DNA from: an uncultured Chloroflexia bacterium
GTDB lineage: Bacteria; Chloroflexota; UBA6077; JACCZL01
NCBI GenBank assembly: GCA_963765765.1
Contig: CAVXYC010000002.1
Span: 64,001-128,000 of the forward strand
Length of the DNA: 64,000 bases
Direction of reading: 5' to 3'
The notes under the pieces were generated by a model that ran no database searches, was not told where the DNA came from, and saw only the letters and a program-made list of their open reading frames with translations. Every line of letters begins with the position of its first letter. The first letter of the stretch is position 1. The translations under genes were made by a program, and so were the position numbers. Below are positions 50,999 through 58,986 of the stretch, piece after piece.

Positions 50999-53900
50999 AT
51001 GAGCGTTCCTTCCCAGCTGATTGCCTCACCGGCCGCTACGTCGAGCTCCGTTACGTCCGATCCCCTCTGGTACAAGGACGCCGTCATCTACGAGGTCCAC
51101 GTCCGGGCGTTCTTCGACAGCAACGGCGACGGCATCGGCGATTTCCCGGGGCTGATTCAGAAGCTGGATTATCTGCAGGACCTGGGCGTTACGGCGATCT
51201 GGCTGCTGCCGTTTTATCCGTCGCCGCTGAAGGATGACGGATATGACACCGCCGACTACACCGCCGTGCATCCTTCATACGGGACGATTCGGGATGTGCG
51301 GACGCTGGTGCGGGAGGCGCATAAACGCGGGCTGCGGGTCATCACGGAGCTGGTTTGCAATCACACGTCGGATCAGCATCCCTGGTTTCAGCGAGCTCGA
51401 CTTGGCGGAGCCCGGCAGCCCCTGGCGCGATTTCTACGTCTGGAGCGACACGCCGGAGAAGTACCAGGACGCGCGCATCATTTTTACCGATACGGAGACG
51501 TCCAACTGGTCGTGGGACCCGGTCGCGCACGCCTACTACTGGCATCGGTTCTACTCGCATCAGCCCGATCTGAACTTCGAGAGCCCGCGCGTTCGCAAAG
51601 CCATCATCAAGGCGCTCGATTTCTGGCTGAGCATGGGCGTGGATGGGCTCCGACTTGGATGCCGTGCCGTATCTCTTCGAGCAGGAGGGCACCAACTGCG
51701 AGAACTTGCCCAGAACGCACGAGTTCCTGAAGGAGCTTCGCCAGCACGTTGATGCGCATTACCAGGACCGCATGCTCCTGGCCGAAGCAAACCAATGGCC
51801 GGAGGATGCCATTGCCTATTTCGGTGATGGCGATGAATGCCACATGGCCTTCCATTTCCCCGTCATGCCGCGGCTGTTCATGGCCATCTACCAGGAAGAC
51901 AGCTTCCCGATCATCGACATCCTCGCTCAGACACCTTCGCTGCCCGATAGTGCCCAATGGGCCCTCTTTCTTCGGAATCACGATGAGCTGACTCTGGAGA
52001 TGGTCACCGACGAAGAGCGCGACTACATGTATCGCATCTATGCCCACGATCCGCAGATGCGCATCAACATTGGCATTCGCCGCCGGCTAGCGCCGCTGCT
52101 CGGAAATAGTCGACGGCGCATCGAGCTCATGAACGGTTTGCTCTTCTCGCTGCCCGGGCACACCCGTGCTCTATTACGGCGATGAGATCGGCATGGGCGA
52201 CAACGTTTACCTGGGCGATCGCAATGGCGTGCGCACACCGATGCAGTGGAGTGCCGATCGCAACGCCGGATTCTCACGAGCGAATCGACAGCAGCTCTAT
52301 TTTCCGGTCGTCTCAGATGCCGAGTACCACTACGAAGCGATCAATGTGGAGGCGCAGCAGAAGAACTCACATTCGCTTCTCTGGTGGATGAAGCGTCTCA
52401 TCGCCCTCCGCAAGCGCTATCGCGCTTTTGGCCAGGGTTCGCTCGAGTTCCTTCGCCCCGGGAATCGCCGCATTCTGGGGTTTGTCCGTGAGTACGATGG
52501 CGAGCGCATCCTGGTTGTCGCGAACCTGTCGCGTTTCGTCCAGCACACGAACCTGGATCTCAGCCGATACAAGGGCGCCATACCCACCGAGATGTTCGGA
52601 CAGGTTGCCTTTCCGATGATCGAAGACGTGCCGTATGCGCTGACACTGGGGCCTCACGAGTTTTACTGGTTCACGCTAGGCCCGCCAAAAGCTGACGACG
52701 CGGTGCTTCCGTGGGATAGCGCCTTGCCAACGCTCACCGTCTCGGCAGGTCTGGATTCTGTGCGCGAGCTCCTCGCGGTGCGTGCTGTGAGCTCGGCCCT
52801 GTCGCGCTTCCTGCAGCATCAGCGTTGGTATGGGGCGGCCACACGCAAGCTTAGCCAGATCGCCGTGCGGGAGACGCTGGCGCTTCCAGGCCTTGCATCT
52901 GATGCCGCGCTTGTAGTGATCCGCGCAAGCTTCACCGATGGAGCTGAGCAGACGTATCTGCTTCCGATCTCGATTGAGCGTGGCGAGCGGGCCGAGCGCC
53001 TTGTCGCCGAGAACGACCCAAGCATCATTGCGCGGATTGTCGAGCGAGGACGCGATGAGCCGCTGGTTCTGCTGGATGCCGCATCGAATCCCGCGATCCA
53101 CACATCGCTGCTCCGAGCGATTCGTGCGCGTCGCCCCCTGCTAGGCAAGGACGGCCGAGTCATTGCCACGTCCGGCTCCGAGCTCCAGACGGTGATCAGC
53201 CAGGCGACAGAGCCCCTTGATCCAGCCCTCATGTCCGTGGAGCAAAGCAACTCCGCGATCCGCTTCAGCGACCGGCTGTTTCTCAAGCTGATCCGCCGCC
53301 CCGCCACGGATATCAACCCGGAGATTGAGATCGGCAGGTTCCTTACCAGGCACGAGTTCCGTCACAGTCCCGCGGTGCTCGGTGCGCTGGAATATCAACA
53401 AGACTCGCAGCCCGCCATGGCGCTGGCGATTTTGCAGGAGCACCTGGAAAATCAGGGCAATGCGTGGTCATACACACTGGATGAGCTGGGACGATTCTTC
53501 GAGCGGGTCGTCACACGGGGAGCCGATGAGCTTGGTGCAGTACCCACGGTAGGGAGCATCCGCGACCTCGCCGACCAGACGCCACCGGACATCGTGTACG
53601 AAACAATTGAGGCCTACCTGGAGACGGCTCGAATTCTGGGCGAGCGCACCGCGGAGCTTCACCTGGTGCTTGCATCCGATTCACGCGACCCCGCGTTTGC
53701 CCCTGAGCCAATCTCCGCGCACTATCAGCGATCGCTCTATCAATCAATGCGCAGTCTGCAGCTCAATGTCTTCGAGGCGCTCAAACAGGCTCAATCCGGG
53801 CTACCCGATGAGCCGCGGTCACTGAGTGAAAGCGTACTCGAGAAGAGCGGCCAGGCCCTGTCCCTGTTTGGCGAGATCCGTGGCCGCCGATTCGGCGGCC

Positions 53901-54379
53901 AGAGAATACGAGTCCATGGTGACTATCACCTGGGTCAGGCGCTCCGCACCGGTTCAGATTTCGCCATCATCGATTTCGAGGGGGAGCCTGCTCGGCCGGC
54001 GAGCGAGCGTCGCTTGAAGCGATCTCCATTGCGTGACATTGCCGGGATGCTGCGCTCGTTTGACTACGCGACACGAGTGGCCCTGACTACGGGGATCGAG
54101 GGCGGAGTGATTCGCCCGGAAGACGCCGAGCCGCTCAGCCCATGGGCGCAATTCTGGTCCGATTGGGTGTCAGCCACGTTCGTGCGCTCATATCTCGATA
54201 TGGTGGACGGCTCTCCATTACTCCCCGCCGCGGACGAGCAATCATTGCTGCTGAACATCTTCCTACTGGAAAAGGCGATTTACGAGCTGGGATACGAGCT
54301 GAACAACCGCCCGAGCTGGTCGCACATCCCGATGCGAGGAATCCTCAATCTGCTTGCCTCATCTGAGCTCACGCGGTGA
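50999..54379 (+). CDS. treS: Trehalose synthase (maltose alpha-D-glucosyltransferase) fused to maltokinase domain, three frameshifts
   Basis: [62 protein letters not shown]; then [30 protein letters not shown]. Confidence 0.92.
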
Positions 54380-55880: not shown

Positions 55881-56012
55881 TAAAGAAATCCACCTTGCGA
55901 TCGGGAAATTGCGACCCAGGTGACGTCCGAAAAAGGGGCGCCACCTGGGTCACCGTGTACCAAGCCAAACATGCCCCGGCCAGGACGGGGCAGGACGCCC
56001 GCAGTCCCAGTC

Positions 56013-58187
56013 CTACGTTGGCGAACCTTCTGAGTCAGAGTCAACGTTGATCGTGATGGTGACTCGACCCTGCCTGCCGCTCCGTCCTCCAAATGAGAGT
56101 GGCGGCGTCCGTCCGAAGGATGAATGGTTTCCTGTTATTGCCAATGAGCCGGGAGCGGCAAAGGTTTGAGCGGGACGGACGGATGACGACAGACTAAAGC
56201 TCCTTGGAGCGGGAGCTATGGCGCCATTCGGAATGTATTCAGACGGCGCTTCTGGCGGGGCGGGAATCGCTACTGGTGTCAAAAAGACATAACACTGAAT
56301 CCACTCAAACTCCCAGCCGTAGTTGCCCGTACCCAGCTCGGACCAATTTGTGGTGTAGAAATGATCGCCAATATCAGCGTTCCAGTATCGGTACAGCGGC
56401 ACTGCGCCAGCCAGTGGAGCGGGCAGCACGTAGCACTGGATCTTTTCGAAGTCCCACCCCCACGCTCCGTTGCCCAGCTCGTTCCAGTCCGTGGTGTAGA
56501 AGTGATCGCCCCATGGATAGCTCACGTATCGATAGAGCGGCACGGTTCCGGGGCGCGGCGTTGCAGACGCATAGCAGGTGATGCCCTCGTAGATGTAGCC
56601 GTAATTTCCGTTGCCCAGCTCGTTCCAATCGGTCGTATAGAAATGGTCGGTAGCTCCCGGACTCATGTAGCGATGCATCGGCACGGCGACAGTCGGGATA
56701 TTGAGGCTCTGGATCGCCTGCTGGAGGTCTGGTCGATTGCCAATGCGCTGGGTGGCCGGACGGCCGGTCGCATTCTGCTGGGCCGAGCCGGTGGTTCGCA
56801 GGAGATTTCGCGCGGCAGCCGGCGTAAGCGGTGTTTGAGCGTGGGCTCGCAGCACACCCTGGATACAGGCGAGCGACCCCACAATGATCGGCGACGCGCT
56901 GGATGTGCCGCTAAACGTGTCCGTATACCAGAGGTCCTCGTCCGGTCCGCCCTGAAAGTCGCCGTAGCCACACGTTGTGACCTCGCGCCCCCAGCCCTGT
57001 GCATCGATCATCGCGCCGTAATTGGAGAAGTCGAGTCGTGACCTGTCAGGACCGTGATTCCTGCCGTGGGTCCCCGGTGGTGGTGCGCCCGCGCCTACGA
57101 CAATCGCCCCGGAGTCCGCGGTGGATCGACGGAACGGATTGGACCAGCTGGCCGGAAAGCCCAGACCGGGTGTGTCGTATATCGCGTCGTCCAGGTCCTC
57201 GGCACCATTGCCGGCGGCCTCAACGACCACGACGCCGCGAGCGACGGCGTACTGAATGGCCGCGAAGTCATCGGGCCACCACTCTACGGCGATGTAGCCG
57301 CGCTGGTCCGAGCGAAGCTGAAAGTTGAAACGCGGACCTGGACGATGCAGCTCGATCAAGATGACGTCGCCCGGATTGAGCCGGTCGGCAGCCTGTCGAA
57401 TGGCCGCGGCGGAGCCCAGCGCGCCGAAGATGGAGATGGCTCGCACGTGGGCTTCCGGCGCGATTCCCGTGATGCCCAGACCGTTATCGTCTCCTCCGAT
57501 CTCGCCAATCACCGCGGTCCCGTGGTTGCGCCACACGATGTCTGTTGACTGAGTGCCGCCCACTACGCCTCCCTGGTTCTGGAGGAGATCCTCATGGGAA
57601 AAGCGCCAGGCGCCCTCGATATCAATGACGCCCACATTGGCCCCACGACCACCAGGATGGGTCCAGGCGTGGAGCGCATCGACTCCGCCGGGGGCGGCCT
57701 GAAGATAGATCTGCCGCGAAGTAAGATCAGCCGTGGCCGGAGGCGGCGGCTCCGGCGATGGCAACATGTCATTGATTTGGGGCGGCGCAGCCGGCGGCTT
57801 TACGTAGGCTGCTTCAACCGTGTCGAGCGCGCGCAAGCGCTCGGCGAGCGTCTCGAGCTGATCGTCCGCGGCCTGCACACGATAAAACGCCGAAAGGTGC
57901 GGAGTACTTGTTCCGAGCGACTCAAGGGCTGGCGCTCCGGGACGGGGCCGCCCTTCAGTCAAGCCAAAGAGTTTCTGAAGGGTGGCGCCATATTCCTGAA
58001 GTACCGCGTTGAGGGGCGCAGCTTCTTCGGGTGTCTCTGTGGGTCCGACGCCGAGTGATTCCAGCGGTCCGTCTTGCTGAGCGGCGATGACCACCAGCTC
58101 GCGCTCCGAATGCCCGCCTCCCACGCTGGACTGCTCAGTATGAGTGTTGTTCGCTCGTCGACCTCTTGGCGATCGTCGCTCTGCCAT
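56013..58187 (-). CDS. S8 subtilase-family serine protease with N-terminal prodomain and three C-terminal HFYTT repeats (DUF5648-like)
   Basis: VIDIEG (Asp), NHGTAV (His), AAGNG (oxyanion Asn), FSGTSSASP (Ser), and three copies of (L/M).RY...DHFYTT.W.ELG.G..G...E.I.CY. No signal peptide. Confidence 0.92.
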   Translation of the reverse strand: MAERRSPRGRRANNTHTEQSSVGGGHSERELVVIAAQQDGPLESLGVGPTETPEEAAPLNAVLQEYGATLQKLFGLTEGRPRPGAPALESLGTSTPHLSAFYRVQAADDQLETLAERLRALDTVEAAYVKPPAAPPQINDMLPSPEPPPPATADLTSRQIYLQAAPGGVDALHAWTHPGGRGANVGVIDIEGAWRFSHEDLLQNQGGVVGGTQSTDIVWRNHGTAVIGEIGGDDNGLGITGIAPEAHVRAISIFGALGSAAAIRQAADRLNPGDVILIELHRPGPRFNFQLRSDQRGYIAVEWWPDDFAAIQYAVARGVVVVEAAGNGAEDLDDAIYDTPGLGFPASWSNPFRRSTADSGAIVVGAGAPPPGTHGRNHGPDRSRLDFSNYGAMIDAQGWGREVTTCGYGDFQGGPDEDLWYTDTFSGTSSASPIIVGSLACIQGVLRAHAQTPLTPAAARNLLRTTGSAQQNATGRPATQRIGNRPDLQQAIQSLNIPTVAVPMHRYMSPGATDHFYTTDWNELGNGNYGYIYEGITCYASATPRPGTVPLYRYVSYPWGDHFYTTDWNELGNGAWGWDFEKIQCYVLPAPLAGAVPLYRYWNADIGDHFYTTNWSELGTGNYGWEFEWIQCYVFLTPVAIPAPPEAPSEYIPNGAIAPAPRSFSLSSSVRPAQTFAAPGSLAITGNHSSFGRTPPLSFGGRSGRQGRVTITINVDSDSEGSPT

Positions 58188-58223
58188 GGCTCCGCCTACC
58201 TCCTGTTGGTTCTTCGGGGGATC

Positions 58224-58499
58224 TCACGGCAATGCCTCGGGTGGCTTCATGTATGCCGCGTCCACGGCCTCGCATGCGTTCAGTCGTTCGATCACGCGCT
58301 GGGCCGTGCTGTCATCCGGGACGTCCACGGTGAAGTATCTGGATAGCTCAGCATCAGCGACGCCAGGGTGCATGGCCTTCAGCGCCACGCCAAGCTCGTC
58401 CGCGGTGCGCAAGACATCGCGGGCGGCGTCATTGGGTGGCGACTGCTGCTGAAGCGACGGCGCCGTGTCTGCTTGGACAAGAACGGTTATGCGCGCCAC
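58224..58499 (-). CDS. Stand-alone subtilase-prodomain-like protein (91 aa)
   Basis: LSRYFTVDVPDD..ERLNACEAVDAAYMKPPEALP aligns with the protease prodomain LSAFYRVQAADD..ERLRALDTVEAAYVKPPAAPP. GGAG RBS, 36 nt upstream of the protease. Confidence 0.8.
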   Translation of the reverse strand: MARITVLVQADTAPSLQQQSPPNDAARDVLRTADELGVALKAMHPGVADAELSRYFTVDVPDDSTAQRVIERLNACEAVDAAYMKPPEALP

Positions 58500-58617
58500 G
58501 GTGCCGGCTCTCCGTGCGTGATTGGAATTCCCGAATTCGACGACAGGAGGCTATCGAGGAGCACCATGGCTGTCAAGAATCAGTTGGGGCTCCTGAACGC
58601 ATACTGGAGAAGTGTCC

Positions 58618-58715
58618 TGGAGTGCGGCGTGCGGAGCGCCGCTTTGGATGGCCGTGACATCGTTGACACAAGTTGTGGGGAAAAGTGAAGGCGGCGCTCC
58701 GCACGCCGCACTTCA
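58618..58715. repeat. REPIN-like element (GGAGTGCGGC...GCCGCTTT type), 28-bp inverted repeat
   Basis: TGGAGTGCGGCGTGCGGAGCGCCGCTTT ... AAGGCGGCGCTCCGCACGCCGCACTTCA (two mismatches). Confidence 0.8.
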
Positions 58716-58737
58716 ATGCGCTTCGCACGGTGACCTG

Positions 58738-58986
58738 CTATTTCACGTATTCGTCTTGGCTTACCGGTGCGTCAGGTAGCTCTCGATCTAGCGACTCTCG
58801 GTATTTCAAGCAGCCTCGGAGAAATTGAGGCCACGGAGGCACCGCAATGTTGTCGGGCATGGGCTCGGGCAGCAATCCCCAGAGCTGTGGATGGTGCCAG
58901 CAGAGTTGCTGGCCGCTGCTGTCGCGATGCTCTCGAATGCCTGCCCGGAGCCGTCGCGCCTCTGAAATGAGCTGATCGCGCGACAT
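58738..58986 (-). CDS. Small hypothetical protein (LCWHHP motif)
   Basis: Protein-like composition: LRAGIREHRDSSG..LCWHHPQLWGLLPE..WPQFLRGCLKYRESLD. May start a few codons earlier. Confidence 0.7.
   Translation of the reverse strand: MSRDQLISEARRLRAGIREHRDSSGQQLCWHHPQLWGLLPEPMPDNIAVPPWPQFLRGCLKYRESLDRELPDAPVSQDEYVK

Follow-up and report, generated by a model that had tools for sequence, protein, structure and literature searches.

Stand-alone mimics of the prodomain are an accepted means of subtilase control, and the cases named in PMC6993865, namely Pleurotus POIA1, yeast PBI2 and Arabidopsis SPI-1 (MEROPS I9), Toxoplasma TgMIC5 and Plasmodium SUB1-ProM, are all eukaryotic, coming from fungi, plants and apicomplexan parasites. 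Here we analyze a gene pair in a 64,000-nucleotide (nt) stretch of DNA from an uncultured Chloroflexia bacterium (contig CAVXYC010000002.1, positions 64,001 to 128,000; hereafter the window), in which a gene for a 91-amino-acid (aa) protein stands directly ahead of one for a 724-aa S8 protease, and we find that the small protein is a free-standing paralogue of the protease's own prodomain. Like the eukaryotic inhibitors described in PMC6993865, the small protein is predicted to bind the catalytic domain and to insert its C-terminal tail into the cleft, and SUB1-ProM is also encoded beside subtilase genes. The same paper describes SUB1-ProM and TgMIC5 as secreted, and the group as lacking significant propeptide similarity and perhaps convergent; the window protein, in contrast, comes from a bacterium and lacks a signal peptide, can be shown to be a paralogue of its neighbor's prodomain, ends exactly at a conserved proline, and has no Pfam I9 match.

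Two bacterial systems come close. In Aeromonas sobria, the subtilase ASP has a small partner from the same operon, ORF2, which places its C-terminus at the catalytic site and serves as a temporary inhibitor and chaperone (PMC5638518); the present pair shares the small same-operon partner and, by prediction, the C-terminal residues at the catalytic site. According to the same source, ORF2 is encoded downstream and ASP is secreted and propeptide-deficient, whereas both proteins of the present pair lack signal peptides and the partner duplicates a prodomain that the protease itself retains. The sole link to ORF2 in our searches is a weak language-model lead (score 0.82) to the Pfam family ORF_2_N, which is found in 16% of one cluster. 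The potempins of Tannerella forsythia, for example PotC, an inhibitor of the S8 protease mirolase, are likewise encoded directly upstream of their target peptidases, and PMC9890683 describes them as co-transcribed, specific and tight-binding. In that description they differ in being outer-membrane lipoproteins, built as OB-folds or eight-stranded beta-barrels, whose loops enter the cleft; they do not resemble prodomains and are confined to a single pathogen. The classical propeptides that act in cis (pro-subtilisin E, pro-Tk-subtilisin, fervidolysin) align structurally, in place, with the N-terminal domain of the window protease, to which the free copy is homologous; the free copy differs from them in being a separate gene product without the loop insertion of the built-in copy, and in having a free C-terminus without cleavage. 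In literature consisting mostly of articles outside subscription journals, with supplements excluded, we found no account of a separately encoded subtilase prodomain copy in bacteria or of this S8–DUF5648 family.

The elements of the gene pair are as follows, with the two open reading frames (ORFs) taken from the ORF list, the spacer from the sequence itself, and the protein domains from the analyses named.

58224..58499, minus strand: 91-aa ORF, GTG start, the small protein and free-standing prodomain paralogue
58188..58223, minus strand: 36-nt spacer carrying the protease ribosome-binding site GGAGG
56013..58187, minus strand: 724-aa ORF, ATG start, the S8 protease
57780..58100, minus strand: built-in (cis) prodomain, protease residues ~30–136 (hhalign, AlphaFold2 (AF2), Foldseek)
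56700..57779, minus strand: linker and S8 catalytic domain, residues ~137–496, with D189, H222, N327 and S429 (Pfam, invariant columns, predicted interface)
56283..56699, minus strand: DUF5648 repeat domain, three repeats, residues ~497–635 (Pfam PF18885; AF2 strands with a predicted local distance difference test (pLDDT) of ~90)
56013..56282, minus strand: disordered C-terminal tail, residues ~636–724, followed by the stop codon (AF2 pLDDT, alignment)

An earlier reading of the window, made from the sequence alone (the sequence-only reading), had placed the 91-aa gene, with a ribosome-binding site of its own, 36 nt ahead of the protease gene on the same strand. The coordinates agree with this, as do the Shine-Dalgarno-like sequences GGAGAG, 8 nt 5' of the small-gene GTG, and GGAGG, 11 nt 5' of the protease ATG.

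The small protein is homologous to the prodomain of its neighbor

The sequence-only reading had aligned the second half of the small protein with the protease prodomain, and BLASTP returns the same stretch, pairing small-protein residues 46–91 with protease residues 92–136 at 19/46 identities (41%, E 2e-7). A comparison of profiles with hhalign, built from 99 small-protein homologues on one side and protease residues 28–140 on the other, joins residues 4–91 to residues 31–136 over 87 columns (probability 98.9%, E 2.2e-17), and its alignment includes the pairing of ELGVALKAM with EYGATLQKL that had been picked out by eye. To extend the comparison beyond the window, 80 related loci were fetched with the protease alignment and then searched with the small-family profile. 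The profile of the 99 free homologues matches the built-in prodomain in 67 of these 80 related proteases (E <= 1e-3), and in 78 after one iteration, so that the similarity between the small protein and the prodomain is beyond chance.

The built-in domain is in turn a genuine subtilase prodomain. When the whole AF2 model of the protease is searched with Foldseek, the best matches include fervidolysin (1r6v), EpiP (3qfh), unprocessed pro-subtilisin E (3whi) and pro-Tk-subtilisin (2z2z/2e1p). The alignments to these run to 480–520 columns, compared with ~350 for mature subtilisins, which indicates that the N-terminal domain is placed as subtilisin prodomains are; in these whole-chain alignments it overlays the prodomain of pro-subtilisin E as well as that of pro-Tk-subtilisin, and the hhalign match thereby connects the small protein to real subtilase prodomains. 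The modeled elements of the built-in copy are strands at residues 30–35, 69–72, 101–105 and 124–130 and helices at 54–65 and 108–119. This copy also contains a 16-residue loop insertion, modeled with low confidence, that is missing from the free copy. The small protein itself is modeled as a confidently folded domain (pLDDT 94), with a topology that fits the propeptide fold as described in PMC6993865, although the Foldseek matches listed for it are generic folds (below).

At its C-terminus, P91 of the small protein aligns with P136 of the protease, after which the alignment of 33 protease relatives becomes variable in length. The catalytic domain proper begins ~20 residues further on, so the earlier statement that the small protein ends at the junction of prodomain and catalytic domain is approximately right.

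A large family with a conserved C-terminal end

The small protein belongs to an unannotated prokaryotic family of ~90-aa proteins. A phmmer search of the full library returned 699 representative clusters at E <= 1e-3 and 140 at E <= 1e-10. Among the 150 best representatives, 107 are no longer than 100 aa, 102 end in K-x5-P, and 106 end exactly six residues after a [Y/F]-x-[K/T] motif. The C-terminus of the family reads ...Y-x-K-P-x-(D/E)-(E/A)-x-P. In an alignment of 99 members, the nearly invariant positions are H44, D49, L52, L73, A82, Y83, K85, P86 and P91. For the eight clusters that were looked up, the sole source name seen is "hypothetical protein", and neither NCBIfam nor PADLOC has a family for the window protein. 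Its only Pfam match, GYD (E 0.048), is below the cut-off and assigns it to no family. A language-model search returned unnamed ~90-aa clusters and, in addition, one cluster in which 10% of the members carry PF22148 (score 0.90), which we treat as a lead only.

A short ORF with a GTG start and no Pfam family could also be a chance frame or the meaningless remnant of a duplication. We reject this explanation: the 699 representative clusters, most of ~90 aa, argue against it, as do a model with a pLDDT of 94, the position and strand kept in 58 of the 80 loci, and a clean separation from the built-in copies in a tree (both below).

The predicted complex places the small-protein tail in the active site

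The sequence-only reading expected the tail of the small protein to lie in the cleft of the mature protease, and the complex prediction returned this arrangement. When the small protein was predicted together with protease residues 150–500, the complex scored 0.94 in three runs, compared with 0.02 for the best of three controls; 58 of 80 solved complexes attain the score mark used, as do 2 of 110 mismatched pairs, although these counts apply only roughly here because custom alignments were used. At least 96% of the contacts agree between runs, and the partner pLDDT is at least 90. In the predicted structure, small-protein residues 85–91 contact H222, A324–N327 and G427–S429 of the protease. 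Additionally, E89 contacts H281, on a segment that we take to be the subtilisin strand that pairs with substrate residues P1–P3, so that P91 would sit at P1 in the manner of a cleaved prodomain. All of the nearly invariant small-protein residues except L73, that is eight of nine, are among the 24 interface residues (hypergeometric 6.5e-5).

The pairing of the two genes is conserved across phyla

The 80 protease loci span Pseudomonadota, Acidobacteriota, Actinomycetota, Cyanobacteriota, Chloroflexota, Planctomycetota, Bacteroidota, Verrucomicrobiota, Myxococcota and Gemmatimonadota, together with two archaea. A free homologue of the small protein is present in 57 of them at E <= 1e-3 and in 61 after one profile iteration. 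In 58 of these 61 the free copy lies directly upstream on the same strand, with a median of 57.5 nt between the stop codon of the small gene and the first aligned protease residue; two of the remaining copies are convergent with the protease gene and one is directly downstream. In these 58 loci the pair is kept as an operon-like unit.

Searches starting from the small protein give a complementary picture. Matches were obtained in 4 of 401 genomes of the window's phylum, namely the window genome and three of one other genus, and the protease adjoins the small gene in all four; five other genomes of the window's own family contain none. In each of five further genomes, picked from the protease loci, the search gives just two matches, one to the free copy and one to the built-in copy. 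In a second phylum (401 genomes), only the seed genome matches well, and two others give weak partial matches. That the module is rare within a phylum and yet spread over many phyla suggests horizontal movement.

The two weak matches (L096:4233-4577(-) and L097:4034-4297(-)) are ~85-aa ORFs that match the middle part of the small-protein profile and end in ...VEYVEAPPKRALIHPVRR. Given the weak, partial match and the absence of an S8 neighbor, we set them aside as family members and regard them as distant fold relatives; they may represent a separate prodomain-like family with another partner.

A tree was built from 60 free copies and 60 built-in ones, taken from the window and 59 further loci; two loci were dropped because a motif finder missed the prodomain end. 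One branch separates the two kinds completely (1 change; Shimodaira–Hasegawa-like approximate likelihood ratio test (SH-aLRT) 90). The tree has few columns, and many inner forks are unresolved. This clean split fits one old duplication as the probable origin of the free and built-in copies, and together with the divergence seen by BLASTP and hhalign it upholds the earlier view that the duplication is not recent.

A probable trans-acting inhibitor of the protease

Taken together, the homology, the conserved pairing, the conserved exact C-terminus and the predicted complex lead us to propose, as the probable though by no means certain function, that the small protein imitates the cleaved prodomain and acts in trans to inhibit the protease or to maintain its latency. 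It would be made from the same transcript as the protease, directly ahead of it. The protease would most likely fold with its built-in prodomain and then cut it off, presumably after P136, whereupon the small protein would take the prodomain's docking site on the catalytic domain. There, its beta-sheet would pack on the surface helices of the catalytic domain and its last seven residues would run through the substrate cleft, bringing the C-terminal proline to the catalytic serine and so imitating a prodomain that has already been cleaved. In this way a protease without a signal peptide could be held inhibited, and so latent, inside its producer; it would be released once the small protein is lost, degraded or left behind. 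The small protein may also help folding, and since it is without the 16-residue low-confidence loop, the free copy is perhaps a more durable inhibitor than the built-in one. Of the sequence-only proposal of a dedicated in-trans inhibitor or chaperone, the trans-acting prodomain partner is thus well supported computationally, by homology, by the pairing in 58 of 80 loci and by the predicted position of the tail, and inhibition is what we infer from these.

Several observations weigh against this proposal. Not one of the 99 family members matches Pfam Inhibitor_I9 (PF05922) or Fervidolysin_NPro-like (PF22148) at E <= 0.1, and the commonest weak Pfam match is instead ACT_4 (18 of 99 members, best E 9.7e-4, all below the cut-offs). 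A sequence profile search of the PDB with the small family gave designed proteins and chance matches only, none of them relevant, and Foldseek with the small-protein model alone gave generic ferredoxin-like folds (PII, S6, ACT; best E 3.8e-3), with no subtilisin prodomain among the top ranks listed. The complex prediction may draw on memory of solved pro-subtilisin complexes. Furthermore, docking at the prodomain site would be expected of any paralogue of the built-in prodomain, so the result would speak for a likeness of binding mode rather than for binding in the cell or for success in competition with the built-in copy. Proline at P1 is unusual for subtilases. Finally, the free copy was not found in 19 of the 80 loci (2 of which have less than 260 nt of upstream sequence), so that a free partner is not obligatory, and neither of the two weak partial matches in the second phylum has an S8 gene within ~3 kb.

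The ACT_4 matches, and the presence of ACT and PII domains among the best Foldseek matches, would also suit an ACT-like small-molecule sensor that regulates the protease allosterically without plugging its active site. We consider this very improbable, as the ACT_4 matches all fall below the Pfam cut-offs and reflect a shared ferredoxin-like fold, the homology to the prodomain is far stronger (E 2.2e-17), and the conserved residues lie in the predicted protease interface and the tail.

A second alternative overlaps with inhibition and differs in emphasis, holding that the small protein is mainly a trans-acting folding chaperone, required for the catalytic domain to fold or refold, and not a lasting inhibitor. 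It would draw on the same homology and the same predicted docking as the built-in prodomain, and Aeromonas ASP/ORF2 (PMC5638518) provides an example of a separately encoded partner that brings its C-terminus to the catalytic site and serves both as a chaperone and, temporarily, as an inhibitor. ASP is described there as propeptide-deficient; by contrast, the proteases studied here keep a complete built-in prodomain (profile match in 67 to 78 of the 80 loci), beside which a second chaperone seems redundant, and 19 of the 80 have no free copy to depend on. A role mainly in folding is thus rather unlikely in our view.

Under the favored reading, that of a trans-acting inhibitor, the control logic established for eukaryotic subtilases would recur in a large unannotated prokaryotic family of ~700 representative clusters. 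This family is directly testable, being tied to one protease family across phyla, descended from its prodomain, and conserved in its exact C-terminal end. Should the small protein prove to be a tight and specific inhibitor, a ~90-aa "hypothetical protein" in many genomes could be annotated, the safe production of a subtilase without a signal peptide would be explained, and a natural pair would be available for engineering switchable proteases.

The protease and its location

The 724-aa protein is an S8 protease by its Pfam match (Peptidase_S8, PF00082, residues 217–467, E 2.2e-14, 53.9 bits against a cut-off of 21.8), by an Asp-His-Ser triad in the proper order with an oxyanion Asn, and by a subtilisin fold (Foldseek E ~1e-12). 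D189, H222, S429 and the oxyanion residue N327 are invariant in the alignment of 33 relatives, so the triad is intact, as the sequence-only reading had stated. The protease family is large, with more than 5,000 proteins at E <= 1e-5 among 8,000 scored; those listed are 52–70% identical and named "S8 family serine peptidase". The best NCBIfam label for the protease, mycosin, is far below its cut-off and was discarded. In the AF2 model of the whole chain (pLDDT 75.3), residues 1–24 and 642–724 are disordered, with pLDDT below 50 at residues 642–696 and 700–724.

Following the catalytic domain, Pfam identifies DUF5648 (PF18885, residues 503–635, E 2.1e-27); among relatives the C-terminal domain differs, being BTRD1, FG-GAP or nothing recognizable elsewhere. 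In its published description, DUF5648 is a three-bladed propeller and likely glycan binder, known from the domains with which Bacteroidales pore-forming toxins bind their receptors, from GH70 enzymes and from a single endolysin. The suggestion that the protease is ligand-gated amounts to a guess: a glycan binder of surface-acting proteins, as this description presents DUF5648, fits a protease aimed at the cell surface at least as well as a ligand-gated intracellular one.

Inspection of the sequences shows no hydrophobic N-terminal stretch in either protein of the pair, and none after a plausible start in any of the 80 related proteases, so the earlier statement that both lack a signal peptide stands. 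Most of the small proteins are too short to have one. The further description of the pair as cytoplasmic is borne out in part: the missing signal peptides and the ATP-dependent partner genes of some relatives agree with it, and a lipoprotein- or Sec-like N-terminus in ~17 of the 37 longer small-family representatives, judged by eye, does not. From these N-termini, some versions of the pair would act outside the cytoplasm or tethered to the membrane. Lipoprotein-like N-termini, in which a hydrophobic stretch is followed by Cys, occur in a minority of small homologues (P0134, P0150, P0178, P0189, P0220 and others).

Both ends of the protease have further regularities. Residues 1–29 (58101–58187), like the N-termini of the 80 relatives, are short, basic, rich in Ser and Pro and apparently disordered, often beginning M-A-K/R-K..., with no Sec or Tat signal. 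The tail, residues 636–724, contains recurring P..F motifs and a final V-T-I-x-I-like strand (consensus VTxxI) common to the 33 aligned relatives, in which P642, P679 and F699 are nearly invariant. This tail might be a sorting or secretion signal.

An ATP-grasp ligase accompanies the pair in some loci

In 22 of the 80 loci (L018, L020, L022, L025, L027 and 17 more), an ATP-grasp ligase is encoded directly 3' of the S8 gene, and a ~240-aa protein is found there in 21. The best NCBIfam matches of the ligase are the ribosomal-peptide maturases TIGR04187, MvdC and MvdD, all below the cut-offs, and the small gene is also present in 20 of the 22 ligase loci. ATP-grasp ligases of the type that act on ribosomally synthesized and post-translationally modified peptides (RiPPs) join Lys to Asp or Glu residues, which the K-P-x-D-E-x-P tail contains. 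The small protein might thus be a substrate or precursor, its tail being modified by the ligase or trimmed by the protease in a RiPP-like or tagging process. This strikes us as improbable. No ATP-grasp ligase adjoins the pair in the window, so the locus does not qualify as a graspetide cluster, and the only ATP-grasp homologue of the genome lies on another contig (C25) beside a different peptidase of family M6. Furthermore, small-protein tails are alike in loci with and without the ligase, and the small protein is a confidently folded domain homologous to a prodomain rather than a leader–core peptide.

On contig C25 (locus L088:7536-11485), the ligase, which is 44% identical, directly follows a gene for a 947-aa M6 (InhA-like) metallopeptidase, and residues ~700–858 of this peptidase share 34% identity (E 2e-17) with the ~240-aa protein. 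Unrelated peptidase classes thus have this add-on in common, and a larger system is hinted at by the recurring association of an ATP-grasp ligase with S8 and another peptidase class.

A broader and speculative proposal, which is unlikely to hold in full, is that the pair is central to a 'latent protease' module that is widespread and moves horizontally. In such a module, a subtilase without a signal peptide would be aimed by a swappable C-terminal binding domain (DUF5648, FG-GAP, BTRD1 or none) and checked in its producer by an immunity-like protein that mimics the cleaved prodomain to its final residue, and in about a quarter of the loci it would be joined to the RiPP-type ATP-grasp ligase and the ~240-aa module. 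It would constitute an undescribed class of protease/anti-protease conflict or signaling systems in bacteria and some archaea. The more specific label of a toxin–antitoxin-like or defense module finds no direct backing: PADLOC assigns neither protein to a family, and no phage or defense genes were seen in the 52–62 kb portion of the window, where Pfam was run on two neighbors.

Local DNA features and neighboring genes

Around the gene pair, three further features are present.

55972..55992, minus strand: terminator-like hairpin directly 3' of the protease stop codon (consensus pattern scan only)
58609..58724, strand not assigned: inverted repeat between the 82-aa gene and the small gene, with 37-nt arms that are 84% complementary and 42 nt apart
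58738-58986, minus strand: 82-aa ORF directly 5' of the gene pair, with no Pfam family

The 36-nt gap, the Shine-Dalgarno-like site of each gene and the flanking terminator-like hairpins make the small gene and the protease gene look like one transcription unit. The 5' hairpin (58709-58691) lies ahead of the small gene and 3' of the preceding 82-aa gene, for which one arm of the inverted repeat also scores as a terminator-like hairpin. Three terminator-like sites were found compared with 2.4 expected in shuffles, and they are consensus matches only. A promoter scan around the pair returned no sigma-70-like sites, and Rfam returned no riboswitch or known RNA above threshold, giving only sub-threshold matches to microRNA precursors that stem from the inverted repeat. 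The central 21 nt of the repeat are perfectly complementary, and this core is present once more in the genome, on contig C19. As to expression, 24 sequencing runs are listed; no RNA run containing the stretch is among them, and none of the runs contains half of it.

The neighbors in the 52–62 kb portion of the window comprise what we take, from their sequences, to be a trehalose synthase/maltokinase-like ORF, a putative regulator and redox or methyltransferase genes, together with a WbsX-like glycosyltransferase gene. When five genomes of the same family were compared for synteny, the downstream WbsX-like gene was present in none and the upstream regulator in two, so that an insertion point is not definable. 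The trehalose synthase-like frame on the plus strand (51643-54379) consists of two overlapping ORFs, 51643-52185 and 52166-54379, in different frames, which may reflect a frameshift or an assembly error in that gene.

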